The notes beneath the pieces are model-generated. The model worked only from the letters and a program-made list of their open reading frames with translations, had not been told where the DNA came from and did not search any database. This document shows, one piece after another, positions 34,216 through 56,080 of a stretch of DNA of 64,000 nt. A program made the position numbers and the translations under genes. Location of the stretch: assembly GCA_965197585.1 (NCBI GenBank), contig OZ240215.1, forward strand, positions 192,001-256,000, given 5' to 3'. The stretch comes from Dehalococcoidia bacterium (GTDB lineage: Bacteria > Chloroflexota > Dehalococcoidia > Plut-88900). Each line of letters starts with the position of its first letter. Position 1 is the first letter of the stretch.

Positions 34216-34223
34216 CCGCCCGG

Positions 34224-34898
34224 TCAATCATCCAGCAGCCCGTTCTGCGCAGCCCACACCACGATCTCCTGCTTCGAGTCAACGCCCAGCTTTACCTGAA
34301 TGGTGTAGATGGCGTTTCGGATGGTGACCGCTTTGACTTCCCTCGCCGCCGCAATCGCAACGTATGACATGCCCCGGCAGAACGACACAAGTATCTCCTT
34401 CTCCCTCTGGGTCAGGTTGACCTCCTTTGATTTCGCTCCGCGCCGAATCCTGTCGAAGACCCGCCTCACCACCTCGGTAGGCAGACGCCCCTCGCCTGCA
34501 GCCGCGCTCTTCATCATGCCCAGGACCTGGTCCATTCCGGCCACCTTCTGAAGATAGCCGGCCGCACCGGCGGCCACCGCCTCTATCACGGCGTTCGCCT
34601 CCGTGGATGCGGTCAGCATGATGACCCGTGTCTTGGGCAGAGACTCCATGATCTCCCGGCACGCCTCCACGCCGTCCTTCCTGGGCATCATGACGTCCAT
34701 GACGATCAAGTCGGGCGACAGCTCGGAGGCCGCCTTCACCGCCTCCACTCCGTCCCTGGCCTGGCCCACCACCTCGAACTCCTCAGACCGCTCCAGAATC
34801 ACCTGAAGACCTTCCCGAGTGACCGCATGGTCGTCGGCGAGCAGCACCCTTATGCGACGAGACTCTGTTGACAATTTATCCCTCCTGTTGTCCGCCAC
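34224..34898 (-). CDS. NarL/LuxR-family response regulator (paralogue of 4053-4715)
   Basis: LADDH, VMDVMMP, LTQREKEIL and VTIRNAIY. Start may be TTG 34874. Confidence 0.92.
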   Translation of the reverse strand: MADNRRDKLSTESRRIRVLLADDHAVTREGLQVILERSEEFEVVGQARDGVEAVKAASELSPDLIVMDVMMPRKDGVEACREIMESLPKTRVIMLTASTEANAVIEAVAAGAAGYLQKVAGMDQVLGMMKSAAAGEGRLPTEVVRRVFDRIRRGAKSKEVNLTQREKEILVSFCRGMSYVAIAAAREVKAVTIRNAIYTIQVKLGVDSKQEIVVWAAQNGLLDD

Positions 34899-36138
34899 CG
34901 GACAATGGCATCACGCAGGTCACGCTGGCGCCCCCGGCCGGTCCCGTGGGCTCGACGATAAGGCGTCCGCTCAGACGCCCGGCGTACACCCGCATGTTTG
35001 CGAAGCCGTGGCCCCGCTCCTCGTAGTCGTCGGGAAGGCCCACCCCGTCGTCCGACACCGACAGCCTGAGCTCATCCCGTCCGAAGTCGAGATCGACCAG
35101 CACCCGGCTCGCCCCGGCATGGCGAAGGGCGTTGGCGAGGGCGTTGTGGGCTAAGGAGAACAGGAGGCTCCTGACCTCTACCGAGAGTGGCGGCTCCACA
35201 CCGTTCTGCGTCAGCTCCGCCGACACCGACGTGATGGACTTGAACGTCGCGACGTGCGAGTCCAGGGTCCAGCCCAACTCACCGCCCTCGAATATGCGGC
35301 CCATGTCAATCGGGTGTCTCAGCTGCCAGACGGCGGTCTTGGAAAGCCGTGAGGTGGCATCGAGCCGTGCGGTGAGCTCCTCGTTGGAGTCTCCGGCAAC
35401 CTGTTGGGCGGCGTCTATCCCCAGGCCGATCATGAAGGCGGTCTGGGCGGCCGTATCGTGAATGGCCTGGGAGAGCTCGATCCGCTCCCGCTGAAGCGTC
35501 CGCTCCCGCTCCACTGCGGCTCTCCACCTGCTCCGCTCGAAGTTGGAGATCAGGTTGACCGTTGCGGCCACCGCATACATGACGAAGATCCTGGCGAGCA
35601 GGGACTTCTCGTCCCTTGCCCCCATGTCGATTCCTTCCCCCACCGTGAGGCTTATCGCCAGATAGAGGACGGACACAACTGTCACACAGACCATGGTCAG
35701 CCTGAAGGAGGTGAGAACCAACGCATACCCGGCCAGCGGGGGGTAGTACAGCAGGTGCAAGAAGTAGTGGTCGAAGCCTCCCCCTATCACCGTGGCGACC
35801 GAGACCATTGTTACATCCATGGCCGCGAACGCAAGAATCCAGCGCCATGTGATGGGCCTTTTCGTCGCAAGCCGGTACTGCGTCATTCCATTGAACGCCA
35901 CTAGCAGAATGAATAGCGGCGCATACACGACGTAGCGCTCCGGCCAACCCACAGGCCGGTACGCCAGCTGCACCAAATTGAAGGCGACCACGAACCAGTG
36001 TGCCCAGACCAGTATGGTCGCTATGTATCTCAGCCCATCCGGGTCGAGCCGCATGAGCGTCGAGTTTTTAATTCGAAAGACGCCAGCGGCCTTACTGATT
36101 GGACGGAAGCCCCGGCTCTGCTGAGGTGCCTGAGACAT
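34876..36138 (-). CDS. Membrane sensor histidine kinase (paralogue of 2797-4056)
   Basis: TM helices, ERIELSQAIHD, WQLRHPIDMG, NALRHA and DDGVG. Confidence 0.9.
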   Translation of the reverse strand: MSQAPQQSRGFRPISKAAGVFRIKNSTLMRLDPDGLRYIATILVWAHWFVVAFNLVQLAYRPVGWPERYVVYAPLFILLVAFNGMTQYRLATKRPITWRWILAFAAMDVTMVSVATVIGGGFDHYFLHLLYYPPLAGYALVLTSFRLTMVCVTVVSVLYLAISLTVGEGIDMGARDEKSLLARIFVMYAVAATVNLISNFERSRWRAAVERERTLQRERIELSQAIHDTAAQTAFMIGLGIDAAQQVAGDSNEELTARLDATSRLSKTAVWQLRHPIDMGRIFEGGELGWTLDSHVATFKSITSVSAELTQNGVEPPLSVEVRSLLFSLAHNALANALRHAGASRVLVDLDFGRDELRLSVSDDGVGLPDDYEERGHGFANMRVYAGRLSGRLIVEPTGPAGGASVTCVMPLSGGGQQEG

Positions 36139-36231
36139 CTCCTCTCCTGTATGCGCGTGAAACCAAGGAATGTTTGGTGGTCACGACAGTGCGTAGGTGA
36201 CCGCTAATCTAGCCACTTTCGTTTATGTCCA

Positions 36232-36688
36232 CAAGAGTGAAATGTTGCAGAAACACACTCTCTCAGAGCCAACACTATTGCTGTCCTAAGAGTGTGATTA
36301 GGCACTTACCAAACCGACGAAGAGGCTCTATTTTCCTTGCTGGTAGAAACCGGACGATAGTTGGGGTCACAGGCCGCCACGTCAGCTGTGGAAGTCGGAG
36401 GAGGTCGTAGGTTCCGCTGGCTTCGCCTGTGCCGGGGAGGCTCTCACGTGGTGCTCGACAGGCCAGTCCATCCACCTCGGACCGCGGACGGAACTGCGGC
36501 GCCCGCAGTCGCTGCGCCGCTCGCCCCTGGGGTTCGCCGCCTACGGCGAGCTAGCACAGACGTCCTCCCCGAATTTTCGGACTCGGCTAGCCGGGGGTAA
36601 GTTATGACCACCTCCCGGCGTCTTGCGACGCTCCCACTGCTGCTCATCGGACTGGCGGTCATCGCCGCCCTGCTTCTCACTCCTGGGG
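36232..36688 (+). repeat. Copy 1 of ~455-bp direct repeat (upstream region, structured leader, RBS, signal-peptide start)
   Basis: Aligns by eye nearly end to end with 50893-51351, with scattered substitutions and small indels. Confidence 0.92.
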
Positions 36689-39600
36689 CCCAGGCCCAGA
36701 GCCGGGACTCCGGCAGCGATTTCACCCTGGACGCCGCCAACGGCTACCCGACCGGCATCTGGTCGGACGGGACCACCATGTGGGTCGCGGACTTCGAGGA
36801 TCACAAGCTGTACGCCTACCGGATGTCGGACCGGAGCCGGGACTCGGGCAAGGACTTCACTCTGGACGCCGACAACGGCTCTCCGGTGGGCATCTGGTCG
36901 GACGGGACCACCATGTGGGCGTCGGACTTCACCGACGCCAAGCTGTACGCCTACCGGATGTCGGACCGGAGCCGGGACTCGGGCAAGGACTTCAACACGC
37001 TTTCTGCAGCCGGCAACCTCTTTCCCGAGGGCATCTGGTCGGACGGGACCACGATGTGGGTGGCGGACACCGGCAACGACACGGTGTTCGCCTACGACCT
37101 GTCGACCAGGGCCTGGGACTTCGAGAAGGACATCACGCTGGGCCCCGGCCACGGCTCTCCGATGGGCGTCTGGTCGAACGGATCCACGATGTGGGTTTCG
37201 GACTGGCGGGACACCAAGCTGTACGCCTACCGGATGTCGGACCAGACGCGGGACTCCGGCAAGGACTTCGCGCTGGACGCCGACGATGAATCTTACGAGG
37301 GCATCTGGTCGGTCGGGTCCACGATGTGGGTAGCGTCCCGCGACGACGACAGGCTCTACGCATACGACTGGAACAATCCTGCGACGGGAGCGCCGACGAT
37401 AACCGGCGCGGTCCGAGTGGGCCAGACGCTGGCGGCGGGCACCCGCTCCATCGCCGACGCGGACGGGCTGGACGCCGCCATCTTCGAATATCAATGGGTT
37501 TCGAACGGCGGGAACGCCGACACGGACATCGCGGGCGCTACCGATTCGACCTACACCATCGTCCCCGGCGACCGGGGCAGGGCCGTCAAGGTCAGGGTGT
37601 CCTTCACCGACGGCGCCGGCAACAGAGAGTCGTTGACCAGCGAGCCGACGGGTCAGGTCGGGACCCCGGGCATCTGCGACCGGACGCCTGCGGTGATGGC
37701 GGCCATCGTCGCCGGGATGACCGGCGTCGGCGACTGCTCCGAGGCTTCCGAAACGAGGCTCAGGACTTGGACCGGCTCTCAGCACTTCGGCCCCGGCGTC
37801 ACGCCCGGGCTGTACCTGCAGGGGAGGGGACTGTCGGCCCTGCAGGCCGGAGACTTCCGGGACCTGTACACGCTGCGCGCCCTGGACCTGAACCGGAACT
37901 TCCTCGAGACCGTCCCGGACGGGCTCTTCGAAGACCTACGCGCCGTGGACGAGCTCTATCTGTCGGGAAACTTCATAGACGAACTGCCGGACGGGGTGTT
38001 CGACGGTCCAGGGGAAGAACTGAGCCTGCTGGACCTGTCGGCGAACGGCCTTGAGACGCTGCCGGAGGGCGTGCTGCGAAATCTGGCCGGACTCGTCTCG
38101 CTGTCGCTCTCGGGCAACGGGCTCTCGGACCTTCCGGCGGGCCTTTTCGACGGCCTGGTCGAACTCGAGGAGCTGGACCTGTCCGCCAACTCGATAGACG
38201 AGCTGCCGGACGGGGTGTTTGACCGCAATCTCGAGCTGCGCGGCCTGGACCTGTCGATCAACGAGATCTCCGAGCTGCCGGAAGGGGTCTTCGGCGGTCT
38301 CGGCGACCTGCAGAGCCTCTCCCTCGCGGGGAACGACCTGAAGAGCCTGCCGGAGGACGTGTTCGCCGACCTCGGGAGTCTCGCTGAGCTGGACCTTTCG
38401 GGAAACAAGCTCAAGGACCTGCCTACCGGCCTCTTCGAAGGTCTGTCGGGGCTGACCGACCTCGACGCGAGCGACAATCCTGGCGCACCCTTCACGTTCA
38501 CCGCAGAGCTGGAGCGACGGGGAGACGATACGGTCGTGGTCCGATTGGCCGAGGGCGCGACGCCGTTTGATCTTCAGATCGAACTGTCGGCCCGTAACGG
38601 AGACCTGTCCGCCGAGACCGTCACCATCGCATCAGGCAGTTCCTATTCGGACGTTGTCGAGGTTCGTGCGCACGGGCATCATCCCGTCACGGTGGAGATC
38701 GACTCAGTTGCTTTCCTGTTGCCTTCCGGGGGTTCAGCGTCGGGAATCCACGCCGACCGCGGCAGCGCCATGCTTATGTGGGTCGGCAGACCATTGGTCC
38801 AAAGGGAATGGATCCAGGATGGACCCTTTGCCCTGCATCCGGAGAACGCGGACCCGAAGAGCATATGGTCGGACGGCGAGACGCTTTGGGTGGGCGACGA
38901 GAGTGCCCGGAAGGTCTTCGCCTACAAGCTGTGGGACAATCCCGGCACTGCAGTCAGCGAGTACGGGACCCGAGACCCCGGCAGGGACCTTCCGAGCCTC
39001 GGCGACGAGGACTTCTACGTCACCGGCCACGGCCTCCGATTGTACGTCGCCGAAGAGTCCCTTGACGGCGCCAGCCGGGACGTCTTCGGCTACGACCTGA
39101 CGAGTTTCACGCGTGCGGAGGACCGGGACTTCGTCTACGGGGGCTTGAACGTCGCGGGGGGCGTGTTCATAGTGCGCGGCACGGCTACGGACGGCCGTCA
39201 CATGTGGATCACGAACACCACGTCGCATGCGCACGCCTTCCGTCTGTTCGACGACCCTGAGACGCCGGAGGACGAATACGGGAAGCCGGACACGTCCCGG
39301 AAACTGACGATCCCCGGCTTGGGCCAGCTGAGCGGCCTCTTCACCGACGGGCGGACGATGTGGGGCGTCAGGTTCGCCTCGAACGACGCCTCGGTGCGGA
39401 GCGTGAAACTGTCCGACGGAACCGATGCGGGGTACGACTTTCCGCTCCACGAGGACAACGACCACGCCTACGGCATCTGGTCGAACGGGGAGACCTTCTA
39501 CGTCGTTGACGCCGACGATGACATGATCTACACCTATCATGGCGTCGGCGGCGTCGTACGGCCCTCCGTCGAAGACGCGGAGACCGCCGCCCCGCTGGTC

Positions 39601-42600
39601 GGCAACACGGGGCAGCCCGGCGACGCCGGCCATGACCTGGGCTTGGCCGGCGCAAAGAGGGCCCAGGCGTTCACCACCGGGACCAGCAGAGCCGGGTATT
39701 CGCTGGCGTCCGTCGGGATCGAGTTCGGCGACGTCTCGGACACGTCGTCCGCGCCGTCCGACCTCGAGGTGACGCTCAACGCGGACGGCGGCGGCGTCCC
39801 GGGCGACGCTCTCTGCACGCTGATCGCCCCGGCGAGCCTGTTCGAGCGGAGCGTGAACACCTTCGCCGCTCCGGCCTCGGGGACGACCTGCCCGGTTCTC
39901 GAGAAAGAGACGACCTACTTCGTGGTCGTCGAAAGGGTCCGCGTCACCGGTTCCGGCGCCATCGCTGTCAGTGGAACGGTGAGCGGCTCCGAAGACACGG
40001 GAGCCGCGGAGGGGTGGTCCATCGCGGACGGAAGCGCGACATATTCTCCTCAGGCCGCCGCTCAGGGATGGGTCTACGACGCGTTTTCCTACAAGATCGA
40101 GGTGCGCGGCTCCTTCATCAACAACCCGGCTACCGGCGAGCCGACGATCGCGGGCACGCCGCAGGTTAAGCGAACCCTCGCCGTGGCGGTCTCCGACGTG
40201 TCGGATGAGGACGGGCTGTCCAACGTTTCTTACAGCTACCAGTGGATTGCCGGAGGGTTGGACATCGCCGGAGCCACCGGCTCCAGCTACACGCTCACGT
40301 CCAACGAGCAGGGCAAGCGGATCAAGGTGCAGGTGGCGTTCGTCGACGACCGTGGCAATCATGAAACGCTGACCAGCGAGGCCACGCCATCGGTCCAGGC
40401 GCCGGATCGGCCCGGAACCGTTTCGCTCTTTCCGGCGCGGCCGAGGGTCGGGATGGTGGTCAGCGCCGCGCTGAGCGATCCCGACGGCCTCCAGGGCGGC
40501 GGTTCGGGCCCTGCGGCATCTTCGGGCGCGGTTTCGTGGAGCTGGGCCAGGTCTCCTGATGGAAACGACTGGACCCGCATCGAGGCCTACGGCGAAGGAG
40601 ACAGCTACGTTCCAACCGAAGAAGACGAAGGGATGCTGCTCAAGGCCGAGGCGTCGTACACCGACGGGCACGGCTCAGGCAAGTCCGCTCAGGCCGTTTC
40701 GTCCGCTGGCGTGGGTGCCCGCGAACCGGTTCCGGAGTTGACGGTGACGGTAATCGTCACGGGCCTGTCCCACCCCTGGGGCATCGATTTCACCCCCGAC
40801 GGGACGATGCTGTTCACCCAGCGCGCCGGCGTGCTGAACGCGAGGCTGACCGACGGCACCGTCAAGCGGGTCGACGCGGATCTCGGAGATCTGCTCGTCG
40901 ACGGGTTCGCCGGCCTGCAGGCGCTGGCCGTGGACCCGGACTTTACGACCAACCGGCGGTTCTACACGCTCCAGGGGCGCGCCGGACGCGAGATGCAGGT
41001 GATCGCCTGGACGATCGATGCGGACTACGACGAGGCCACACGCGTCGTCGATCCCCTGGTAAAGGGAATACCGATCGGGCCCGGGCCCTGGCACTCGGGA
41101 GGCCGGCTGCTATTCGGTCCGGAGGGATATCTATGGATCGCGACCGGCGACGGGCGGGTGGTAACGGGCGCGCAGGACCTGACGTCCCTGGGCGGCAAGG
41201 TCCTGCGCGTAGACCCGCGGACGGGCGCTGGGGCGCCTGGCAATCCGTTCGTATCTTCCGAACTGGTGTATGCCTACGGCTTCCGCAACCCCCAGGGCCT
41301 GGCTCTGCGCCCGGGCACGGACCAGATGTGGCTGGTGGAGCACGGCCCGAAACACGACGACGAGATCAACCTGCTGAAAGCAGGCGGCAACTTCGGCTGG
41401 GATCCGGACCCGGCCGGCGGATCGTCGGGCTCCTACCACGAGGCCGGCGTCCCCATGACCGACCTGGAGAAGTACCCATCCGCCCGCCAGGCCAGATGGT
41501 CCTCGGGATTCCCCACCCTGGCAACCAGCGGGGCCGTTTTCCTGGATGGCCCCCAATGGGGGGAGTGGGAAGGGCGACTCGCGGTGGCTACGCTCAATGC
41601 GAAGTCGCTGCGGGTCTTCGAGTTCACCGAACAGGGCGATTTCGCGGGTCAGATCGTCGTTCCGGAGCTCGATGGCAGCCACGGCCAGTTGCGGACCCCG
41701 GTGCTCGGCCCCGACGGGGCGCTGTACATCGCCACCTCCAACGCACCCGGCGTCGACAGGATTCTCAGGGTGGCCGCCAACAGTGCCGCGACGGGAGCGC
41801 CCGTCATCAGCGGCACCGTTGAAGTCGGCGAATCGCTGACGGCGGTCGTGTCCGGGATCGCCGACCCCGACGGGCTCGACGATGCTGCGTTCAGTTTCCA
41901 GTGGGCCCGCAGCCACTACGGGAGCAATTTCTCCGACATCGAAGGAGCGACGGCTTCGACCTACACCCTGGTTATGGCTGACCTTGGCAAGACTATCAAC
42001 GTGCGGGTGTCGTTCTATGACGACGGAGGCAGCCTGGAGGCGCTGACCAGTCAGAGGACGGTCAAGGTATCAGTCGTGGCATGTACGGTCGGCGAGCATG
42101 CCCCTGCGGCAACGGCGGTAGAGGTAGAAGCCGTTCCCGCTATCGTCGAGTCCACCACCGAGGAATACTTCGTGCTCTACGTGCGGCCCGCCCTGAGCTC
42201 CGAACGAGAGTTCCCGATCTCGGTGACCCTGGGCGAAGACGGCACAACAACGCTGACCGAGCAGCTGTCCCCGCTCCCCAAGGAGCATTACCGGGTGGAG
42301 AAGTTCCTCATCGCCGACCCGGCCGACATCGACAACGACTGCATCGACGACATCACCGAATTGGGGGACCCGGTGGGGATGAACCCGCTGAACCCCGCGC
42401 GGGCGGTCCCTTTTCGTGATGGCGCTGTGGCCATTCCAGACCGTGAGACATTCGAGGCGCTTTCCTACAAGGGCAGAGACGTTCCCTATCACCGTCATCT
42501 CCAGGACCTGGAGTTTGTCAAGTTCTACATTATCGGCTCGTCTGCCGAGAACATGGGTGTCTATTTCATTAACACCGAGACCCACCGAATACATCCCGAT

Positions 42601-45600
42601 TTCGGGGATGCAATCGGTCTCTGGAACGATCCGCTCTGGGGACAGGGGTACATGGGCGGCGAGATCATATACCATCCCAATGTGGTTGCTCCCGATGGTT
42701 CCCTGGGCGTCTACCGCTATCAGTTCCAGCCTATGGACGTATACTCCTTCGGCGCTGTGGCCCGTTCGTATGAGGCGCTTGCTGCCAGCATGCCGCTGCT
42801 TGATAACAACTTTGCCTACTATCCGATGCCGAGGAGAGCCCTGCCGCTCTATCACAGAGAACGGGCCCTCTACGATGATTCCCGGATCAATGTGGTGTTG
42901 AGAGAGGACATCCTGCCAGATGTTCCATTTATCCCCCTCAACGTTGGGGAGGGGTACGGTTTCCTCAGGCTCATGTCGTTGGAGGAACGCCCCGACCCGC
43001 GCGACGTGGTGATCTACGAGACTATCCCCAACGAGCTTTCCCGGGTCGTCGGCCTCATCACCACCGTACCCCAGACACCGCTTTCCCACGTCAACCTGCG
43101 GGCCGTCCAGGACGGTGTCCCCAACGCCTTCATTCGCGACGCTCTCGACGAGGGCGACATCAATGATCTCATCGGCAGATATGTCCACTACAGCATCACG
43201 GCGGACGGCTACTCCATCCGCGCCGCCACTCCCGCCGAAGTCGAGGCCTACTTCGCCGCTTCGCGCCCTCTCGGAACCCAGACGCCGGAACGGGACCTCA
43301 CAGTCACCCAGATCACCGACCTGGACGACATCGGCTTCGACGACTGGAACGCTTTCGGCGTAAAGGCGGCCAACGTGGCCGTGCTGCGGACGCTGGGTTT
43401 TCCTGACGGAACCGTCCCCCACGGGTTCGCGGTGCCCTTCTACTTCTACGACGAGTTCATGAAATACAACGGGTTCTATGACGACGTGGAGGAGATGCTG
43501 GCCGACCCGGAGTTCCAGTCGGACTATGACACCCAGGAGAAAGAACTCAAGAAACTGCGCAAGAAGATCAAGAAGGGGGAAACGCCCGACTGGATCATCA
43601 CAGCACTGGAGGAGATGCACGCCACCTACGCCGAAGGGCAATCCCTGCGCTACCGGTCGAGCACAAACAACGAGGATCTGCCGGGCTTCAGTGGCGCTGG
43701 GCTGTACGACTCAAAGACCCAGGACCCGGAGGAGACGGAGGAGGACGGTATCGACAAGTCCATCAAAGGGGTGTGGGCCAGCCTGTGGAACTTCCGGGCA
43801 TTCACTGAACGCGAGTTCCACCGCATCGACCACATAGAGACGGCCATGGGGGTCCTGGTGCATCCCAACTACTCGGACGAGCTGGCCAACGGCGTGGCCG
43901 TCAGCTTCGACCCTATCTACGGAACGGAGGGGAGCTACTACGTCAACACGCAACTCGGGGAGGACCTGGTCACCAATCCCGACGCACACTCGGTGCCCGA
44001 GGAAATCCTGTTGGACCTGTCCGGTTCATACACCACCCTGGTGACCTCCAACCAGGTGGCAGGAGGACAACTCCTCATGAGCGATGCTCAAATTGGCCAG
44101 TTGAGCCGGCATCTCCAGGACATCCATGACCATTTCGAGGGTCTGTACAACCCCGGACCCGACGAACCCTTTGCAATGGAGATCGAGTTCAAGATCACCA
44201 GCGACGACGTCCTGTCCATCAAACAGGCCCGCCCCTGGGTGTTTGACGCAACTAACGCCGGACCACCGCAGGAAGAGCCGATATGGTCCGCGACCCTTAC
44301 GGTGGGGACCGCAGAGAACTTCGCCGGCTACACGACATTCGTGGCCTCGCCGGAAACCAACACCCTGGGCGCACTCTCGTCGGACACCATCACTCTGGAT
44401 GGTGTCAGCTACACCGTGAAGGCCCTGGCGGTTCGGGACGGCGAGTTGATCCTCTCCGTGACGCCAAAGCTGGCTGCAGGTTTTGTGCTGGTTGCGGGGA
44501 CATCTGAATTCGCCTCCACCGATGCATCTACCCTGGAAACGGACTCTCTCTTGCAGTTCTACTGGAATAACCCAGGACTGGACTGGTCCGAGGAGGAAGA
44601 GGTCGCTGTCAGACTAACTGAGCCGAACGATAACGACCCGGCCACGGGAGCGCCCACGATCACTGGAACTTCGCAGGTGGACCAGACGTTGACGACGGAC
44701 ACCTGGGCCATTACCGACGAAGACGGGCTGACCAACGTTTCCTACAGCTACCAGTGGATCAGGAGCGACGGCAACACCGACACCGACATAGCGGGAGAGA
44801 CGGACTCGACCTACACGCTGGTCCGCGCCGACGAGGGCAAGACCATCAAGGTGCGGGTGAGCTTCACCGACGACGCCGACAATGCCGAGACGCTGACCAG
44901 CGCGGCGACGGGGGTGGTTGAGGCCAAGCCCAACACCCTGGCCACGGGAACGCCCACGATCACTGGAACGGCCCAGGTGGGAGAGACGCTGACGGTCCTC
45001 ACCAACGGGATCGCCGACGAAGACGGGCTGACCAATGTTCTCTACAGCTACCAGTGGATCAGGAGCGACGGCAACGCCGACACCGACATAGCGGGAGAGA
45101 CGGACTCGACCTATACGCTGGTCCGCGCCGACGAGGGCAAGACCATCAAGGTGGGGGTGAACTTCACCGACGACGCCGATAACGCCGAGACGCTGACCAG
45201 CGCAGCGACGGGGGTGGTTGAGGCCAAGCCCAACACCCCGGCGACGGGAGCGCCCACGATCACTGGAACTTCGCAGGTGGACCAGACGTTGACGGCGGAC
45301 ACCTGGGCCATTGCCGACGAAGACGGGCTGACCAACGTTTCCTACAGCTACCAGTGGATCAGGAGCGACGGCAACACCGACACCGACATAGCGGGAGAGA
45401 CGGACTCGACCTACACGCTGGTCCGCGCCGACGAGGGCAAGACCATCAAGGTAGGGGTGAGCTTCACCGACGACGCCGACAATGCCGAGACGCTGACCAG
45501 CGCGGCGACGGGGGTGGTTGAGGCCAAGCCCAACACCCTGGCCACGGGAACGCCCACGATCACTGGAACGGCCCAGGTGGGAGAGACGCTGACGGTCCTC

Positions 45601-48600
45601 ACCAACGGGATCGCCGACGAAGACGGGCTGACCAATGTTCTCTACAGCTACCAGTGGATCAGGAGCGACGGCAACGCCGACACCGACATAGCGGGAGAGA
45701 CGGACTCGACCTATACGCTGGTCCGCGCCGACGAGGGCAAGACCATCAAGGTGGGGGTGAACTTCACCGACGACGCCGATAACGCCGAGACGCTGATTAG
45801 CGCGGCGACGGGGGTGGCGTCCCGCTCCGACAAGCCGGTGGCGGATGGGTCGACCCCGGTGTGGTCGGCGGACATGTCTGTGGTGGATCTCGGTAACGGC
45901 TCCATTGGCGCCGTCAGCGCCAATCTCTTTTCGAACCAAGAAGGCAGTGCGGGTCTTCAGGCAAAGTGGCTGTGGTACTACAGCCCGGGGCGTTATATAC
46001 GCCTGTCATTTACGGATGTTGTACCCAGTGGGGAGGAACTGACGCTAGAGATCGGAGATGTGGCCCTGACGTTGCAGGCGGGAGATTCGGCCTTCACCTG
46101 GGAGGAGGTCGACGTCGATTGGGAGGACGGTCAGGTCATTCCAGTGCGCATCGTCCCGACGTCGGAGACAGCGGTGTCCCAGCCCAACACCCCGGCGACA
46201 GGAGGGCCGACCATCAGTGGAACGGCCCAGGTGGACCAGACGCTGTCCGTGGACACGTCTAACATCGCCGACCAGGACGGGCTGAACAACGTTTCCTACA
46301 GCTACCAGTGGATCAGGAGCGACGGCAACACCGACACCGACATAGCGGAAGAGACGGACCCGACCTACATCCTAGTCCCCGCCGACGAGGGCAAGACCAT
46401 CAAGGTGCGGGTGAGCTTCACCGACGAAGCAGACCACGAGGAGACGCTGACCGGCAATCCGACCAGGCCAGTGACTGCGGCACCCAACCGTCACGCGACG
46501 GGCAAGCCCACCATTGGCGGGACGCCCCAGGTGGACCAGACGCTGACCGCGGACACGTCTAACATCGCCGACCATGACGGGCTGAACAACGTCTCTTACA
46601 GCTACCAGTGGATCGCCGGAGGTACGGACATTGATGGGGCCACCGGGTCCACCTACACCCTGACTGCCAGTGAGCAGGGGCAGACCATCCGGGTTCGTGT
46701 GACGTTCACCGACGACCGGGACAACGCCGAGACCCTGACCAGCGTGGCGACTGTGGCCGTTGTTGCAGCGCCCAACCGCGAGGCCACGGGCCACCCCGCC
46801 ATCGGCGGGACGCCCCAGGTGGACCAGACGCTGACCGCGGACACGTCTAACATCGCCGACCAGGACGGGCTGAACAACGTCTCTTACAGCTACCAATGGA
46901 TGGCCGGAGGTTCGGACATTGATGGGGCCACCGGGTCCACCTACACCCTGACTGCCAGCGAGCAGGGGCAGACCGTACAGGTGAAGGTGACGTTCACTGA
47001 CGACCGGAACAACGCCGAGACCCTGACCAGCGTGGCGACTGTGGCCGTTGCTGTAGCGCCCAACCGAGAGGCCACGGGCCAGCCCACCATCGACGGGACG
47101 CCCCAGGTGGGAGAGACACTAACGGCGGATACGGCAAACATCGCCGACCAGGACGGGCTGAATAACGTGTCCTACAGCTACCAGTGGATCGCTGGAGGTA
47201 CGGACATCGTCGGGGCCACCGGCTCGAGCTACGAGCTTACGTCCAGCGAGCAGGGGCAGCCCATCCAGGTCCGGGTGACTTTCACCGACGATGCCGATAA
47301 CGAGGAGACGCTTATAAGCGCTGCAACGGAGGTGGTGCAGCAGGGTGGTAACGCCTGGTCCGCCACTATCACCGTGGGGACAAGAGATGGATACACAGGG
47401 TATTCGTACTGGGGCGATCCCGGCCTGGGGTCCCTGTCGGCCACCGAGGCCGAATGGGACGGCAAGACCCACTACGTCAGGTACATCTTTCTCAAGGATG
47501 GAGAGCTCTGGCTTGGCCTGAACAACGAGATGTTCTCCACCGGCTTCGTGCTGTCGGTTGGGGACGAGGAGTTCGGTTCGGCGGACGCCTTGGTGGATAG
47601 GAGTGGCGGTGCGTCCTACAGATTCCGGTGGGATGACCGGGGATTGGGCTGGTCGGATGGGGAGGAAGTGTCGGTGAACCTCCTGCAGTCCGACCAGAAT
47701 ACCCCGGCCCTGGGCGCGCCGACCATCAGCGGAACGGCACAGGTGGACGAGACACTGACTGCGGATACCTCTGGCGTTGAGGACGCGGACGGGTTGACCA
47801 ACGTGTCGTACAGCTACCAGTGGATGGCTGACGGCGTGGACATTCAGGACGCGACCAGTTCCACCCACAAGCTCGTATTCCCCGACCGGGGCAAGAGCAT
47901 CAAGGTGAAGGTGTCCTTCACCGACGACCGGGACAACGCCGATACCCTTACCAGCGCGGCGACTGTGGTCGTTGTTGCAGCGCCCAACCGCGAGGCCATG
48001 GGATATCCCACCATCACCGGAATGCCCCAGGTGGGACAGACCCTGACGGCGGACACTTCGCCAATCGCCGACCGCGACGGGCTGAACAACGTCTCTTACA
48101 GCTACCAGTGGATCGGCGGAGGGTCGGACATCGATGAGGCCACAGGCTCTAACTACGAGCTTGCGTCCAGCGAGCAGGGACAGACCATCCAGGTTCGGGT
48201 GACTTTCACCGACGACCGGGACAACGCCGAGACCCTTACCAGCGCGGCAACTGTGGCCGTTGTTGCAGCGCCCGACCGTCAGGCCACGGGCCTGCCCACC
48301 ATCAGCGGTACGCTCCAGGTAGGAGAGACCCTAATGGCGGGCACGTCGGGTATTACCGACGCCGACGGGCTCACCAACGTTTCCTTCGAGTACCAGTGGA
48401 TCAGGGGCGACAGCGGTGCCGGAGCGGACATAGACGGAGCGACGGACGCCACCTACACTCTGACCGCCGGCGACCAGGGGAAGACCATCAAGGTGAAGGT
48501 GTCCTTCACCGACGACGCAGACCACGAGGAGAAGCTGACCAGCGCGGCGACGGGAGTGGTTGCGGCCAAGCCCAACACTCCGGCCATGGGAGCGCCCACC

Positions 48601-50724
48601 ATTGATGGAACGGCCCAGGTGGGAGAGACGCTTACGGTCCTCACCAACGGCATCACCGACGAAGACGGGCTGACCAACCCAACGTACAGCTACCAGTGGA
48701 TTCGGAACGACGGAACCAATGACGCGCACATAGGAGGTAAGACAGGTTCGACCTACACCCTGAACGATGACGACGTGGGGAAGAGCATCAAGATGCGGGT
48801 GAGCTTCACCGACGACGCCGACCACGAGGAGACCCTGACCAGCGCGGCGACGGGGGTGGTTACAGCCAAGCCCAACTCTCCAGCCACGGGAGCGCCCACC
48901 ATTGATGGCACGGCCCAGGTGGGAGAGACGTTCACTGCCCTCACCAACGGCATCACCGACGAAGACGGGCTGACCAACCCAACGTACAGCTACCAGTGGA
49001 TCAGGAGCGACAACGGCACCGACGCCGATATAGCAGGGCAGACAGACTCCACCTACACGCTAGTGGCCGCCGACCAAGGCAAGACCATCATGGTGCGGGT
49101 GACCTTCACCGACGACGCCGATAACGAGGAGACCCTGACCAGCGCGGCAACGGAGGTGGTGCAGCAGGGTAGCAACGCTTGGTCCGCCACGATGACCGTG
49201 GGGACAAGAGATGGGTTCACCGGGTATTCGTACTGGAGCAATCCACACCTGGGGTCCCTGTCGGCCACCGAGGTCGAATGGGACGGCAAGACCCACTATG
49301 TCAGGTTCCTTTTTCTCAAGGACGGCGAGCTCCGGCTCGGCCTGAACGAAGAGATGTTCTCCACCGGCTTCGTGCTGTCGGTTGGGGACGAGGAGTTCGG
49401 CTCGGCGGACGCCATGGTGGATCATGGCGGTGCGTCCTACAGATTCCGGTGGGATGACCGGGGATTGGGCTGGTCGGATGGGAACGAGGTGTCGCTAAAC
49501 CTCGTGCTGTCCGACCAGAATACCCCGGCCCTGGGCGCGCCGACCATCAGCGGTACGGACCAAGTGGATGAGACGCTGACTGCGGACATCTCCGGTGTTG
49601 AGGACGCGGACGGGCTGGACAACGTGTTGTACAGCTACCAGTGGATGGCTGACGGCGTGGATATTCAGGACGCGACCAGTTCCACCTACAAGCCAGTATT
49701 CCCCGACCAGGGCAAGACCATCAAGGTGCGGGTGACCTTCACCGACGACCGGGACAACACCGAGACCCTTGGCAGCGAGGCGACGGGTGCAGTAGCGGCG
49801 GCGCCCAACCGTGATGCCACGGGAGCTCCCACCATCACAGAAATGCCCCAAGTGGGACAGACGCTGACGGCGGACACGTCTAACATCGCCGACCAGGACG
49901 GGCTGACCAACGTCTCTTACAGCTACCAGTGGATCGCCGGAGGGTCGGACATCGATGGGGCCACCAGCTTCAGCTACGAGCTCACGTCTAGCGAACAGGG
50001 TCGGACCATCCAGGTCCGGGTGACCTTCACCGACGACCGGGACAACGCCGAGACCCTTACCAGCGAGGCGACTGTGGCCGTTGTTGCAGCGCCCAACCGC
50101 GAGGCCACCGGCCTGCCGGCCATCAGCGGCACGCCGCAGGTGGGGGAGACCCTCACCGCATCAACCTCGTCCATAGCCGACGGGGACGGGCTGAACAACG
50201 TGTCCTACCGTTACCAGTGGATCGCCGGAGGTACGGACATCGATGGGGCCACCGGCTCCAGTTACGAGCTCACGTCCAGCGAGCAGGGGCAGACCATCCA
50301 GGTCCGTGTGACTTTCACAGACGACCGCGACAATGAGGAAACTCTGACCAGCGCGGCTACTGTCGAAGTGGCGGCGGCGCCAGTTCCGCTCACCGTCCGA
50401 CTGAAGGTCGCCGCCCCGACCTCCCACGACGGCTCGTCTGAGTTTACCTTCGAAATCGAGTTCAGCGAGGAGTTCGGCCTGAGCTACGTGACCCTGAAGA
50501 ACCATGCCTTCAATGCAGCCGGCGGATCCGTGGAGAGGGCGCAGAGAACGAACAAGCCCAGCAACATCTCCTGGAGCATCATGGTAAAGCCCACCTCCAC
50601 CGGGGACGTGACGATCGAACTCCGGGCAACCACGGACTGCGGAGCTACCGGAGCCATCTGCACCGGCGACGACAGGAAACTGTCCAACTCGCTGAGCTTC
50701 ACCGTCTTTGGGCCGGGGGGCTAG
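36604..50724 (+). CDS. Giant secreted modular protein (4706 aa): NHL-like repeats, LRR, PQQ sugar dehydrogenase, dikinase module, 19 ~96-100-aa Ig/cadherin-like repeats
   Basis: Signal peptide ending AQA. GIWSDGTTMWV repeats; LPxGxFxxLxxL LRRs; GSDH motifs HPWGI, HSGGRL, GFRNPQG, DDEIN; LSHVNLRA, RSSTNNEDLPGFSGAGLYDS, EIEF and QARP; ATGxPTIxG...YQW...VSFTDD repeats. Confidence 0.92.
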   Translation: MTTSRRLATLPLLLIGLAVIAALLLTPGAQAQSRDSGSDFTLDAANGYPTGIWSDGTTMWVADFEDHKLYAYRMSDRSRDSGKDFTLDADNGSPVGIWSDGTTMWASDFTDAKLYAYRMSDRSRDSGKDFNTLSAAGNLFPEGIWSDGTTMWVADTGNDTVFAYDLSTRAWDFEKDITLGPGHGSPMGVWSNGSTMWVSDWRDTKLYAYRMSDQTRDSGKDFALDADDESYEGIWSVGSTMWVASRDDDRLYAYDWNNPATGAPTITGAVRVGQTLAAGTRSIADADGLDAAIFEYQWVSNGGNADTDIAGATDSTYTIVPGDRGRAVKVRVSFTDGAGNRESLTSEPTGQVGTPGICDRTPAVMAAIVAGMTGVGDCSEASETRLRTWTGSQHFGPGVTPGLYLQGRGLSALQAGDFRDLYTLRALDLNRNFLETVPDGLFEDLRAVDELYLSGNFIDELPDGVFDGPGEELSLLDLSANGLETLPEGVLRNLAGLVSLSLSGNGLSDLPAGLFDGLVELEELDLSANSIDELPDGVFDRNLELRGLDLSINEISELPEGVFGGLGDLQSLSLAGNDLKSLPEDVFADLGSLAELDLSGNKLKDLPTGLFEGLSGLTDLDASDNPGAPFTFTAELERRGDDTVVVRLAEGATPFDLQIELSARNGDLSAETVTIASGSSYSDVVEVRAHGHHPVTVEIDSVAFLLPSGGSASGIHADRGSAMLMWVGRPLVQREWIQDGPFALHPENADPKSIWSDGETLWVGDESARKVFAYKLWDNPGTAVSEYGTRDPGRDLPSLGDEDFYVTGHGLRLYVAEESLDGASRDVFGYDLTSFTRAEDRDFVYGGLNVAGGVFIVRGTATDGRHMWITNTTSHAHAFRLFDDPETPEDEYGKPDTSRKLTIPGLGQLSGLFTDGRTMWGVRFASNDASVRSVKLSDGTDAGYDFPLHEDNDHAYGIWSNGETFYVVDADDDMIYTYHGVGGVVRPSVEDAETAAPLVGNTGQPGDAGHDLGLAGAKRAQAFTTGTSRAGYSLASVGIEFGDVSDTSSAPSDLEVTLNADGGGVPGDALCTLIAPASLFERSVNTFAAPASGTTCPVLEKETTYFVVVERVRVTGSGAIAVSGTVSGSEDTGAAEGWSIADGSATYSPQAAAQGWVYDAFSYKIEVRGSFINNPATGEPTIAGTPQVKRTLAVAVSDVSDEDGLSNVSYSYQWIAGGLDIAGATGSSYTLTSNEQGKRIKVQVAFVDDRGNHETLTSEATPSVQAPDRPGTVSLFPARPRVGMVVSAALSDPDGLQGGGSGPAASSGAVSWSWARSPDGNDWTRIEAYGEGDSYVPTEEDEGMLLKAEASYTDGHGSGKSAQAVSSAGVGAREPVPELTVTVIVTGLSHPWGIDFTPDGTMLFTQRAGVLNARLTDGTVKRVDADLGDLLVDGFAGLQALAVDPDFTTNRRFYTLQGRAGREMQVIAWTIDADYDEATRVVDPLVKGIPIGPGPWHSGGRLLFGPEGYLWIATGDGRVVTGAQDLTSLGGKVLRVDPRTGAGAPGNPFVSSELVYAYGFRNPQGLALRPGTDQMWLVEHGPKHDDEINLLKAGGNFGWDPDPAGGSSGSYHEAGVPMTDLEKYPSARQARWSSGFPTLATSGAVFLDGPQWGEWEGRLAVATLNAKSLRVFEFTEQGDFAGQIVVPELDGSHGQLRTPVLGPDGALYIATSNAPGVDRILRVAANSAATGAPVISGTVEVGESLTAVVSGIADPDGLDDAAFSFQWARSHYGSNFSDIEGATASTYTLVMADLGKTINVRVSFYDDGGSLEALTSQRTVKVSVVACTVGEHAPAATAVEVEAVPAIVESTTEEYFVLYVRPALSSEREFPISVTLGEDGTTTLTEQLSPLPKEHYRVEKFLIADPADIDNDCIDDITELGDPVGMNPLNPARAVPFRDGAVAIPDRETFEALSYKGRDVPYHRHLQDLEFVKFYIIGSSAENMGVYFINTETHRIHPDFGDAIGLWNDPLWGQGYMGGEIIYHPNVVAPDGSLGVYRYQFQPMDVYSFGAVARSYEALAASMPLLDNNFAYYPMPRRALPLYHRERALYDDSRINVVLREDILPDVPFIPLNVGEGYGFLRLMSLEERPDPRDVVIYETIPNELSRVVGLITTVPQTPLSHVNLRAVQDGVPNAFIRDALDEGDINDLIGRYVHYSITADGYSIRAATPAEVEAYFAASRPLGTQTPERDLTVTQITDLDDIGFDDWNAFGVKAANVAVLRTLGFPDGTVPHGFAVPFYFYDEFMKYNGFYDDVEEMLADPEFQSDYDTQEKELKKLRKKIKKGETPDWIITALEEMHATYAEGQSLRYRSSTNNEDLPGFSGAGLYDSKTQDPEETEEDGIDKSIKGVWASLWNFRAFTEREFHRIDHIETAMGVLVHPNYSDELANGVAVSFDPIYGTEGSYYVNTQLGEDLVTNPDAHSVPEEILLDLSGSYTTLVTSNQVAGGQLLMSDAQIGQLSRHLQDIHDHFEGLYNPGPDEPFAMEIEFKITSDDVLSIKQARPWVFDATNAGPPQEEPIWSATLTVGTAENFAGYTTFVASPETNTLGALSSDTITLDGVSYTVKALAVRDGELILSVTPKLAAGFVLVAGTSEFASTDASTLETDSLLQFYWNNPGLDWSEEEEVAVRLTEPNDNDPATGAPTITGTSQVDQTLTTDTWAITDEDGLTNVSYSYQWIRSDGNTDTDIAGETDSTYTLVRADEGKTIKVRVSFTDDADNAETLTSAATGVVEAKPNTLATGTPTITGTAQVGETLTVLTNGIADEDGLTNVLYSYQWIRSDGNADTDIAGETDSTYTLVRADEGKTIKVGVNFTDDADNAETLTSAATGVVEAKPNTPATGAPTITGTSQVDQTLTADTWAIADEDGLTNVSYSYQWIRSDGNTDTDIAGETDSTYTLVRADEGKTIKVGVSFTDDADNAETLTSAATGVVEAKPNTLATGTPTITGTAQVGETLTVLTNGIADEDGLTNVLYSYQWIRSDGNADTDIAGETDSTYTLVRADEGKTIKVGVNFTDDADNAETLISAATGVASRSDKPVADGSTPVWSADMSVVDLGNGSIGAVSANLFSNQEGSAGLQAKWLWYYSPGRYIRLSFTDVVPSGEELTLEIGDVALTLQAGDSAFTWEEVDVDWEDGQVIPVRIVPTSETAVSQPNTPATGGPTISGTAQVDQTLSVDTSNIADQDGLNNVSYSYQWIRSDGNTDTDIAEETDPTYILVPADEGKTIKVRVSFTDEADHEETLTGNPTRPVTAAPNRHATGKPTIGGTPQVDQTLTADTSNIADHDGLNNVSYSYQWIAGGTDIDGATGSTYTLTASEQGQTIRVRVTFTDDRDNAETLTSVATVAVVAAPNREATGHPAIGGTPQVDQTLTADTSNIADQDGLNNVSYSYQWMAGGSDIDGATGSTYTLTASEQGQTVQVKVTFTDDRNNAETLTSVATVAVAVAPNREATGQPTIDGTPQVGETLTADTANIADQDGLNNVSYSYQWIAGGTDIVGATGSSYELTSSEQGQPIQVRVTFTDDADNEETLISAATEVVQQGGNAWSATITVGTRDGYTGYSYWGDPGLGSLSATEAEWDGKTHYVRYIFLKDGELWLGLNNEMFSTGFVLSVGDEEFGSADALVDRSGGASYRFRWDDRGLGWSDGEEVSVNLLQSDQNTPALGAPTISGTAQVDETLTADTSGVEDADGLTNVSYSYQWMADGVDIQDATSSTHKLVFPDRGKSIKVKVSFTDDRDNADTLTSAATVVVVAAPNREAMGYPTITGMPQVGQTLTADTSPIADRDGLNNVSYSYQWIGGGSDIDEATGSNYELASSEQGQTIQVRVTFTDDRDNAETLTSAATVAVVAAPDRQATGLPTISGTLQVGETLMAGTSGITDADGLTNVSFEYQWIRGDSGAGADIDGATDATYTLTAGDQGKTIKVKVSFTDDADHEEKLTSAATGVVAAKPNTPAMGAPTIDGTAQVGETLTVLTNGITDEDGLTNPTYSYQWIRNDGTNDAHIGGKTGSTYTLNDDDVGKSIKMRVSFTDDADHEETLTSAATGVVTAKPNSPATGAPTIDGTAQVGETFTALTNGITDEDGLTNPTYSYQWIRSDNGTDADIAGQTDSTYTLVAADQGKTIMVRVTFTDDADNEETLTSAATEVVQQGSNAWSATMTVGTRDGFTGYSYWSNPHLGSLSATEVEWDGKTHYVRFLFLKDGELRLGLNEEMFSTGFVLSVGDEEFGSADAMVDHGGASYRFRWDDRGLGWSDGNEVSLNLVLSDQNTPALGAPTISGTDQVDETLTADISGVEDADGLDNVLYSYQWMADGVDIQDATSSTYKPVFPDQGKTIKVRVTFTDDRDNTETLGSEATGAVAAAPNRDATGAPTITEMPQVGQTLTADTSNIADQDGLTNVSYSYQWIAGGSDIDGATSFSYELTSSEQGRTIQVRVTFTDDRDNAETLTSEATVAVVAAPNREATGLPAISGTPQVGETLTASTSSIADGDGLNNVSYRYQWIAGGTDIDGATGSSYELTSSEQGQTIQVRVTFTDDRDNEETLTSAATVEVAAAPVPLTVRLKVAAPTSHDGSSEFTFEIEFSEEFGLSYVTLKNHAFNAAGGSVERAQRTNKPSNISWSIMVKPTSTGDVTIELRATTDCGATGAICTGDDRKLSNSLSFTVFGPGG
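44641..45817 (+). repeat. Near-perfect 600-bp-period tandem duplication (two pairs of stalk repeats)
   Basis: 44641-45217 is almost identical to 45241-45817. Confidence 0.92.
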
Positions 50725-50892: not shown

Positions 50893-51351
50893 CAAGAGCA
50901 AAACGTTGCAGAAACACTCTCTCTAAAAGCTAACGACATTGCTGCCGAGAAAGTGTGATTAGGCACTTACCAAATCGACGAAGAGGCTCTATTTTCTTGC
51001 TGGTAGAAACCGGACGATAGTTGGAGTCACAGGCCACCATATCGGCTGTGGAAGTCGGAGGAGGTCGTAGGTTCCGCTGGCTTCGCCTGTGCCGGGGAGG
51101 CTCTCACATGGTGCTCGACAGGCCAGTCCATCCACCTCCGACCGCGGACGGAACTGCGGCCCCCACAGTCGCTGCACCGCTCGCCCCTGGGTTCGCCGCC
51201 TACGGCGAGCCGGCACAGACGTCCTCCCGGAATTTTCGGACTCGGCTAGCCGGAGGTAAGTCATGACCACCTCCCGGCGTCTTGCGCCGCTCCCCACTGC
51301 TGCTCATTGGGCTGGCGGCCCTCTGCGCCGCCCTGGTGCTCATCCCCTGGG
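50893..51351 (+). repeat. Copy 2 of ~455-bp direct repeat
   Basis: Matches 36232-36688 and includes ATG ACC ACC TCC CGG CGT CTT GCG at 51263. Confidence 0.92.
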
Positions 51352-51557: not shown

Positions 51558-51711
51558 CTCCGACCGTCGAAGCGGTTCGGGGAGGCGGTAGGCTTTCTCG
51601 CGGCCAGTGTTGGATCTGTCCATCGAGACAGGTTTACACAGTTCGATGAAAACGGCAGCCATGACGATGAAGTATACGGTGAAGAGAAAACTAAAGTGCT
51701 AGGAGGAGATA

Positions 51712-56021: not shown

Positions 56022-56080
56022 GTTGCACCTCCTTAGTGCCTATGCCTTGTTTCCGTCGCCTCTAGCGCCCCCTTGGGGGC

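Follow-up and report, generated by a model that had tools for sequence, protein, structure and literature searches.

The giant gene and its dikinase-like module

We analysed a 64,000-nt stretch of a Dehalococcoidia genome (contig OZ240215.1, positions 192,001 to 256,000 of the forward strand, assembly GCA_965197585.1), referred to below as the window. It includes on its plus strand an open reading frame (ORF) of 14 kb, without stop or frameshift, whose product starts with a signal-peptide-like segment and contains leucine-rich repeats, a dehydrogenase-type propeller, a dikinase-like module and a series of Ig-like repeats (Table 1). Pfam families matched on this ORF include GSDH, LRR_8, PPDK_N and the AIR9/SCAB Ig repeats, from a total of 11 families found in a scan of the whole protein. 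The module is the subject of this report. We propose, with a probability of about 0.5, that it is an exported and catalytically competent dikinase that works through a swivelling histidine and is held at the cell surface on an adhesin-like stalk.

The module has three parts: an N-terminal domain (N-domain), a segment around a candidate phospho-acceptor histidine (His segment) and an ATP-grasp-type nucleotide-binding domain. The original prediction had described it as a unit resembling glucan/water dikinases (GWD) and spanning nt 42420–44245. A unit does exist, since aa 1826–2560 align end to end with homologues at 41–94% identity, but these homologues place its start at nt 42079, 341 nt upstream of the predicted one, and its end near aa 2560 (nt 44283). 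All the motifs quoted in that prediction were recovered at their places in the ORF. ITTVPQTPLSHVNLRA begins at aa 2152 (nt 43057) and carries His2162 (CAC codon, 43087–43089); FGVKAAN is located at aa 2251, RSSTNNEDLPGFSGAGLYDS at aa 2351, VWASLW at aa 2390, EIEFK at aa 2526 and QARP at aa 2541. The predicted ATP-grasp domain was confirmed by Pfam PPDK_N (PF01326), which aligned with aa 2251–2546 over positions 4–310 of its 328 (97.3 bits for a cut-off of 27, E 1.4e-27). It follows the His segment, in the order claimed. Also as claimed, no phosphoenolpyruvate (PEP)/pyruvate barrel family was matched in Pfam, even at E ≤ 1 over an 800-aa region.

Conservation was examined in two alignments, A1 with 29 module sequences (41–93% identical) and A2 with a more divergent set of 25. 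In A1, the Lys of GVKAAN, RSSTN.EDLP.F.GAGLY, the E/K of EIEFK and QARPW were invariant, as was Q-T-P-L-S-H-x-N-L-x-A around His2162. This His was also kept in 24 of the 25 members of A2. The exception, P0254, has a Pro instead of His (QTPLSPSNLRA) together with decayed RSS, GAGLY and EIEFK motifs, and is probably an inactive paralogue, a dead copy. On a larger scale, a loose regular expression for the His motif was met in 241 of the 265 homologues retrieved, many of them fragments. Comparison with 7 close relatives gave ratios of nonsynonymous to synonymous substitution rates (dN/dS) of 0.22–0.25 for the whole module and 0.16–0.22 for the ATP-grasp part. As judged by these sequence comparisons, the catalytic motifs of the module appear intact and under purifying selection.

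The N-domain is 39–93% identical among members, with K148, H172 and S268-R269 (module numbering) among the invariant residues. It includes a 12-residue DxDxDxxxDxxE loop of the EF-hand/TSP3 type, in which D83, D85, D87, D91 and E94 are invariant or nearly so in both A1 and A2. The module has just two cysteines, C1827 upstream and C1913 in the loop. Both were present in 173 sequences, the loop Cys alone in 6, the upstream Cys alone in 4 and neither in 16 (Fisher p 2e-15, uncorrected for kinship). The loop may bind Ca and the two cysteines may form a C1827–C1913 disulfide; both features would suit an extracellular protein.

Table 1. Features of the giant ORF, in window coordinates
Feature	Position	Strand	Basis
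Giant ORF, predicted exported multidomain protein, 4706 aa	36604..50724	+	ORF list, translation, Pfam
Signal-peptide-like N-terminus, aa 1-31, ...PGAQA/QS	36604..36696	+	sequence reading; hydrophobic 12-mer score 3.1
Leucine-rich repeat region, aa about 400-640	37801..38523	+	Pfam LRR_8, E 1.4e-40, 5 stretches
Glucose/sorbosone dehydrogenase beta-propeller of the pyrroloquinoline quinone (PQQ) type, aa 1388-1716	40765..41751	+	Pfam GSDH, E 2.2e-64
Dikinase-like module, 735 aa, aa 1826-2560	42079..44283	+	end-to-end homologue alignment
N-domain, aa 1826-2110; presumed acceptor-binding role	42079..42933	+	no Pfam, PDB-sequence or ESM Atlas relative
EF-hand/TSP3-like 12-residue Ca-binding-type loop DIDNDCIDDITE, aa 1908-1919	42325..42360	+	conserved Asp/Glu
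His segment, aa about 2111-2235, candidate phospho-acceptor His2162 (43087-43089)	42934..43308	+	conserved motif
PPDK_N-type ATP-grasp nucleotide-binding domain, aa 2251-2546	43354..44241	+	Pfam, E 1.4e-27
Post-module stalk: three 'WSATxTVG' domains and about 18 Ig-like A9 repeats	44284..50373	+	motif positions; Pfam IG_AIR9/SCAB-Ig
C-terminal domain, about 110 aa, two Cys	50386..50721	+	similar C-terminus in homologue P0194

The N-terminus of the giant protein, MTTSRRLATLPLLLIGLAVIAALLLTPGAQA/QS, has the form of a signal peptide, as judged by its sequence and by a hydrophobicity heuristic. A reading of its 'SRR' as a Tat signal was set aside, the h-region being strongly hydrophobic and a folded cargo of 4706 aa implausible. 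A Shine-Dalgarno-like GGGGG run is located 7–11 nt upstream of the ATG. A scan for promoters and terminators upstream of the giant gene found nothing, and a tRNA scan of the whole window found no tRNA gene. The WSATxTVG domain of the stalk is about 120 aa long and starts at aa 2561, 3585 and 4193 (window 44284–44670, 47356 and 49180, respectively). It has no Pfam match, and several homologues (e.g. P0007, P0023) begin with it. For the C-terminal domain as well, no Pfam match above noise was obtained. Two further Pfam calls, for the giant ORF and locus L113, were rejected as evidently spurious, both being summed weak matches to the Ig and WSDG repeats: Ribosomal_S28e (58.9 bits, which exceeds the cut-off, though no stretch was accepted) and NACHT NCH3.

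Relation to known phosphotransferases

The family profile was compared with solved structures and matched PEP synthase 9dae_A best (E 8e-17). It also aligned with PEP synthase 2ols_A over the whole ATP-grasp domain, including the MEIEFK/QARP or MDIEW...ILQARP region. Among NCBIfam models, the ATP-grasp domain scored 84 and 81 bits with PEP synthase, 64 with rifampin phosphotransferase, 43 with PigC and 19 with PPDK. None of these scores comes near its family cut-off (84 against 598 for PRK06464, 19 against 843 for TIGR01828, 63.9 against 999 for NF041857 and 43 against 1300 for NF052631), and only the N-terminal ATP part of the models was aligned. The module shares with PEP synthase (PpsA) and PPDK, its best structure and NCBIfam matches, a PPDK_N ATP-grasp domain with the RSSxxxEDLP..AG and E..QARP motifs. 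In these enzymes, however, the ATP domain comes first and a PEP/pyruvate TIM barrel is C-terminal, whereas the module has the reversed order and no barrel. Their His domain matches the PEP-utilizers family (PF00391), in contrast to that of the module.

Rifampin phosphotransferase, BsPPS (Bacillus phenolic phosphate synthetase), PigC and RedH phosphorylate hydroxyls with ATP, yielding AMP and Pi. They are built of three parts (ATP-grasp, swivel His and a non-barrel acceptor domain), as the module would be, and their ATP-grasp sequence is similar to that of the module. They differ from it in being cytoplasmic, in aligning by their ATP-grasp part alone and in their order: rifampin phosphotransferase, BsPPS and PigC have ATP-grasp, acceptor domain and then His, as judged by profile positions and by PMC13553574.

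According to the original prediction, the order His before ATP domain is that of the plant starch dikinases GWD and PWD. This agrees with the published description (PMC13553574, JBC 2026). There, potato GWD1 is composed of CBM45, CBM45, an all-alpha central domain, the His domain and the ATP domain, an order that 'differs dramatically' from those of PPDK and rifampin phosphotransferase. The catalytic His of StGWD1, H992, is preceded by conserved V989 and L990. Its ATP domain is reported to be closer to that of rifampin phosphotransferase than to that of PPDK, and its His domain to resemble other swivel domains only distantly (PMC13553574). GWD1 and PWD (EC 2.7.9.4 / 2.7.9.5; plants and algae) thus have in common with the module one or more acceptor-side domains followed by a small His domain and a C-terminal ATP-grasp domain (PMC13553574), as well as L-S-H around the catalytic His. 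The ATP-grasp domain of the module is nearer to the PEP synthase/rifampin phosphotransferase type than to PPDK, as for StGWD1 (PMC13553574). In its domain order, in the affinity of its ATP domain and in the faint likeness of its His segment to other swivel domains, the module parallels GWD. The comparison was made via this description and the Pfam profile.

At E ≤ 10, GWD1_pHisD (PF22973) had a sole match in the 3.43-Mb genome, located at 43018–43227 of the window, that is aa 2139–2208 around His2162. It was also the single match of this His segment in a search against all Pfam. When 26 His segments were searched in the same way, no family except GWD1_pHisD was matched by two or more of them (4 of 26, best E 0.006). 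The profile of this recently added family also gave 19 weak matches of 10.8–18.6 bits in 24 other genomes that carry a module. As judged by contig coordinates, 9 of these fall within a module gene's His segment (L012, L026, L028, L054, L059, L065, L073, L079 and a paralogue in the genome of L013), one is unverified and 9 lie elsewhere. The matching members are mutually related and were counted as one recurrent weak signal. At E ≤ 0.001, no match to GWD1_pHisD was obtained in 301 Chloroflexota genomes or in 14 control genomes, and a profile of the His segment found among PDB sequences only a chance-level match to stomatin. For comparison with canonical swivel domains, the pattern G-x-x-x-G...I-L-V...T-x-P...G-x-x-T-x-x-G-G-x-T-S-H-A-A-I-V-x-R-x-x-G-x-P was derived from 26 PPDK- or PEP synthase-like genes of related genomes. 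By eye, the corresponding G-E-G-Y-G-x-L-R...D-V-V-I-Y-E-x-x-P-N-E-L...V-x-G-x-I-T-T-x-x-Q-T-P-L-S-H-V-N-L-R-A-x-Q-D-G-V-P-N of the module resembles it, a resemblance that is statistically weak. We read the His segment as being remotely but really like the GWD phosphohistidine domain.

The motifs had been called typical of GWD and PWD, which could be kept only in part. The His segment is weakly like GWD1_pHisD, but the score of 13 bits is below the 27 bits of the cut-off, and PEP synthases and rifampin phosphotransferase share the RSSxxxEDLP..AG motif equally. Neither CBM45, CBM20 nor another carbohydrate-binding module (CBM) was found among the 11 Pfam families of the whole protein. There was no match to the central domain either: the N-domain matches no PDB chain and so would not be the all-alpha central domain (9HA9), if this entry is in the searched copy. 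Furthermore, GWD is plastidial, whereas the module is bacterial, apparently exported and horizontally spread, and has a Ca-type loop and a Cys pair. The module would thus be GWD-like in its layout and faintly so in its His domain, and yet not a GWD, because it has no CBM45 and no detectable central domain.

Export signals, spread and genomic setting

Export, as originally predicted, is supported by the signal-peptide-like start of the giant protein and by the signal peptides, type IX secretion system (T9SS) tails or CWB2 anchors of its homologues. N-termini were scored by a home-made heuristic, the most hydrophobic stretch of 12 residues among the first 70 (Kyte-Doolittle mean of at least 2.3). 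Among the 265 homologues, 53 start inside the module and 6 are without the anchor motif, leaving 206 that could be assessed. Of these, 155 passed the score, compared to 39 of 4628 internal 70-aa windows (0.8%) and none of 30 cytoplasmic-type PPDK/PEP synthase ORFs. Most of the 51 failing homologues either start partway through an Ig or fn3 repeat or have a signal-like start that is shortened, suggesting that their gene calls are truncated; an evidently cytoplasmic N-terminus was observed in none of them. At the other end, Por_Secre_tail (type IX secretion) reached its cut-off in 4 of 6 Bacteroidota-like members, one being just below it and one without it, and this domain occurs in 62% of the members of an ESM Atlas neighbour cluster. 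Three CWB2 cell-wall-binding repeats are present in each of 2 other members, and an SLH domain in one, according to a precomputed list. The minimal complete form, P0021 (786 aa), consists of a signal peptide and the module.

A word-indexed search with the 735-aa module retrieved 2157 matches at E ≤ 1e-3 among 8000 candidates scored. A scan of 1.84 billion cluster representatives gave 4958 matches at E ≤ 1e-3, 2648 at ≤ 1e-10 and 1269 at ≤ 1e-30, the last figure being a number of clusters at 50% identity. The weaker matches probably share the ATP-grasp domain alone. The module is N-terminal, central or C-terminal in carriers of 700 to more than 3700 aa, and partner domains among the 120 matches listed were fn3 (36), cadherin (16), cadherin-like (10) and AIR9 Ig (7). 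One homologue, P0122 (3227 aa), carries two module copies in one polypeptide, with 2 matched stretches and 2 PPDK_N stretches. In their source records the members are named 'hypothetical protein' or 'PEP/pyruvate-binding domain-containing protein' only. A full-text literature search found no description of an exported dikinase family and, in agreement with the original prediction, no characterised example.

With one genome per species, at least 599 relatives were found, encoded by 599 of the 603 pattern-matched stretches examined. The best 80 of them belong to Dehalococcoidia, Acidimicrobiia (including Candidatus Poriferisodalis and Poriferisocius), Acidobacteriota, Latescibacterota, Poribacteria, Thermodesulfobacteriota, Planctomycetota and a Prolixibacteraceae. 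Within phyla the module is rare: it was detected in 4 of 400 other Chloroflexota genomes sampled, the query being the N-terminal 420 aa, in 1 of 350 other Bacteroidota genomes searched with the N-domain profile and in none of 8 genomes of the window's own genus (G401–G408). Copies 92–94% identical were found in two other genera of the window's family and in one genome of another family (G410, G411 and G430), and synonymous divergence (dS) from close module copies is 0.14–0.17. This suggests a recent gain or exchange of the module. Synteny analysis in the 8 same-genus genomes revealed only 66–82% identical fragments of paralogous genes, and no insertion site could be defined.

A FastTree phylogeny was built from 79 modules, 3 of 82 loci having been dropped with an uninterrupted translation of less than 600 aa. 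The tree has 22 changes of phylum label, for a minimum of 7 and a mean of 30.1 after shuffling. It includes well-supported, short-branch sister pairs from different phyla (L054/L068, L021/L063, L075/L079, L036/L044 and L033/L042). Horizontal transfer between phyla would be the simplest reading of this tree; mis-binned contigs and paralogy are caveats, though several of the records are chromosome-scale. Among viral contigs, 23 pattern matches were obtained and none encodes a module relative. Overall, the module family appears to be undescribed, very large, patchy within phyla and intermixed between phyla.

Contig pieces 92–99% identical to the module were found in two RNA libraries labelled sponge metagenome (for instance 795 nt over 42454–43248 with 47 differences, and 534 nt over 42952–43484 with 17 differences), and similar pieces in runs of two other studies. 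Sponge samples and RNA preparations thus contain close relatives, which falls short of proving transcription. Many members belong to lineages named after sponges, and the source bacterium is probably sponge-associated.

The source genome is metagenome-derived, a single contig with 6.9% estimated contamination. A chimeric assembly, considered in the original prediction, was not borne out, as the architecture recurs in independent assemblies. In 7 other Dehalococcoidia assemblies the module is 91–94% identical and stands in frames of 2455 to more than 4528 aa, with GSDH at the same upstream distance, and P0123 (3210 aa) has the same domain order as the giant protein. The genome itself contains a second module gene of 4167 aa, whose module is 71% identical. 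Its product is composed of a signal peptide, the module, LRR, GSDH, Ig and fn3, that is the same parts as in the giant protein in another order.

Some other features of the locus were recorded. Single low-depth contigs (two runs, two studies) join 41971 to 44829/44830, connecting an Ig repeat that precedes the module with one that follows it and skipping 2857–2858 nt. The sides of these joints are 22–23 letters long, with extra letters between, and Ig repeats of other genes are their most likely source. Directly downstream of the giant gene, 50893–51373 is 89% identical to 36232–36707 in its 5′ region. An ATG at 51263 encodes MTTSRRLAPLP, after which the frame shifts, and an overlapping frame (51282–51776) goes on with a signal peptide and the first part of an fn3-like domain before a stop after 164 aa. 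The segment 50893–51776 looks like what is left of another giant-protein gene after truncation and a frameshift. On the minus strand upstream of the giant gene (34210–36492), a two-component system is encoded, with a LuxR-type regulator at 34224–34898 and a HisKA_3 kinase at 34876–36138. A further copy of this system, 93% identical in DNA, lies some 4 kb upstream of the second giant gene (G000:C1:466570-472068), and a leader region is common to both giant genes (73–81%). Both genes seem to lie in duplicated 'regulator + giant gene' cassettes. Finally, G+C content reaches 0.68–0.73 at 54000–58000, compared to about 0.58–0.63 in most of the window and 0.64–0.67 over the first 6 kb of the giant gene. 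An ORF with a CHC2 primase-type zinc finger is located there (54646–56028, minus strand), and this region may be an integrated mobile element.

Proposed reaction and competing explanations

In the reaction that we propose, the C-terminal ATP-grasp domain would bind a nucleoside triphosphate and His2162 would accept its beta-phosphate, the gamma-phosphate being transferred to water, which is how PEP synthase, GWD and rifampin phosphotransferase work. Next, the His domain would carry the phosphate to the N-domain, which would hold a hydroxyl of an extracellular acceptor. Overall, the reaction would read ATP + acceptor + H2O -> AMP + Pi + acceptor-phosphate. The domain order, the intact and conserved motifs, purifying selection, the family-wide export signals and the patchy spread across phyla are observed; autophosphorylation, the swivel fold, the use of extracellular ATP and the acceptor are what we infer in this scheme.

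Hints about the acceptor come from fusions. Among 18 large homologues, fn3 was observed in 13, sulfatase together with SGSH_C (the heparan-type N-sulfoglucosamine sulfohydrolase family) in 2 (P0193 and P0134) and GSDH in 1. BLAST located a sulfatase in, or just beside or upstream of, four more loci (L019, L025, L038 and L051). GSDH is fused in the window's protein, in the second paralogue, in L003-L009 and L023, and in P0123 and P0222. Because these partners are extracytoplasmic sugar-directed enzymes, a glycan is the most economical guess, and from this minority of fusions we tentatively suggest a glycan of the surrounding matrix. In its most extended form, the proposal is that these would be the first truly extracellular ATP-driven His-relay dikinases: mounted on the surface, they would phosphorylate matrix glycans with nucleotide from dense host- or particle-associated habitats, as a counterpart of starch phosphorylation by GWD, and so loosen or mark the polymer for the fused sulfatases and sugar oxidoreductases, while being traded horizontally among unrelated sponge symbionts as a tool specific to that habitat. 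This whole picture is possible but doubtful. Among the neighbours of 80 loci, the largest cluster consists of other giant repeat proteins (43 of 80); the second largest was rejected as antisense artefacts.

Several points weigh against an exported dikinase or against its proposed acceptor. The chief problem is how nucleotide would be supplied outside the cell, where ATP is scarce, and we know of no exported member of the His-relay dikinase superfamily. The signal-peptide calls depend on the hydrophobicity heuristic. As for the His segment, PF00391 did not match the module at E ≤ 1 over the 800-aa region, nor at E ≤ 10 in the whole genome, and the ordinary PPDK-like gene of the same genome scores 87.5 bits with this family. 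With hhalign, His was aligned on His of canonical swivel domains in the expected register, but with a probability of 0.1 and E 0.54, a score that was exceeded by one control segment. The GWD1_pHisD score of 12.7–13.2 bits (E 0.139 per genome at 13.2 bits) is likewise below its cut-off of 27. The N-domain (285 aa) has no relative above noise in Pfam, PDB sequences or the ESM Atlas, its profile giving only a chance-level multicystatin match among PDB chains, and it has no carbohydrate-binding signature. No partner enzyme (phosphatase or transporter) is conserved among the neighbours of the 80 loci. Enzyme fusions are a minority (sulfatase 2/18, GSDH 1/18), and no recognised CBM family was found in the 18 large homologues, one of which has weak partial F5/8-type-C-like matches. 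In addition, the 119-member cluster of a T9SS-bearing relative includes a marine Crocinitomicaceae record without host-related label. The family is therefore not confined to sponge symbionts, and a sponge-specific acceptor is not required.

The problem of ATP would be solved if the giant protein took the module into another cell where it is plentiful, either a competitor or, after uptake, a sponge cell. Repeats such as LRR, cadherin, fn3 and Ig typify proteins that interact with a host, and sponge symbionts use eukaryote-like repeat proteins. Such a delivered effector is nevertheless improbable: no translocation, pore-forming or autoprocessing domain was found in the giant protein or its 18 large relatives, and the module may be N-terminal, in the middle or C-terminal in its carriers, unlike toxin cassettes. 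The T9SS tails and CWB2 anchors speak for display at the surface, and the Ca-type loop and probable disulfide suit an extracellular milieu. Alternatively, the module could act outside the cell as a sink for ATP, with a regulatory N-domain, splitting it to AMP and 2 Pi or passing the phosphate to water. It would thereby blunt purinergic or danger signalling of the host, extracellular ATP being a danger signal in animals, or scavenge phosphate. The sink shares its catalytic and export evidence with the dikinase, no acceptor-type domain is recognisable, many members come from sponge-named lineages and close relatives were found in sponge metagenome runs. We consider this sink rather unlikely, as the size of the N-domain, its 39–93% identity and its invariant polar residues are hard to explain without a bound acceptor. 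The Crocinitomicaceae member without host-related label also argues against it, and simpler secreted nucleotidases exist.

The acceptor could also be a small molecule, the hydroxyl of a secondary metabolite such as a host or microbial phenolic being phosphorylated outside the cell to inactivate or activate it. The ATP-grasp domain scores with the NCBIfam models of rifampin phosphotransferase and PigC/RedH and with rifampin phosphotransferase structures. BsPPS, which acts on many polyphenols (PMC13553574), provides a precedent, and the N-domain would be comparable in size to such substrate domains. This reading is unlikely, however, since rifampin phosphotransferase, BsPPS and PigC put ATP-grasp first, the NCBIfam scores are far below cut-off (63.9 against 999 for rifampin phosphotransferase), and the module is fused to adhesion repeats and to glycan or sugar enzymes rather than to drug-related domains. 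That the module has lost dikinase activity and survives as a binding or structural domain is very improbable: P0254 indicates that dead copies exist, but all motifs are kept here and in 24 of 25 diverse members, and the dN/dS of the ATP-grasp part is 0.16–0.22. An assembly chimera, or a mis-called cytoplasmic gene, is hardly credible. The genome is metagenome-derived, with the contamination given above, and read-derived short contigs do not bridge the module borders; yet GSDH, module and repeats stand in one frame in the 7 other assemblies and in P0123, the second paralogue has the same domain set, and the 14 kb are free of stops and frameshifts.

We therefore retain an exported dikinase module, at the probability given above, as our preferred reading. 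To our knowledge, all characterised enzymes of the superfamily (PEP synthase, PPDK, GWD/PWD, rifampin phosphotransferase and PigC) work inside cells, where ATP is abundant. A large family built for export would challenge one of two assumptions, either that ATP-dependent phosphotransfer is confined to the cell interior or that ATP is the donor. Many of its members occur in sponge-named lineages, its gene tree is mixed between phyla and close relatives are found in sponge metatranscriptome libraries, which makes the family a candidate for a tool that host-associated consortia share. Should a matrix glycan be the acceptor, the module would represent a new route of extracellular polymer modification and a possible biocatalyst for polysaccharide phosphorylation.

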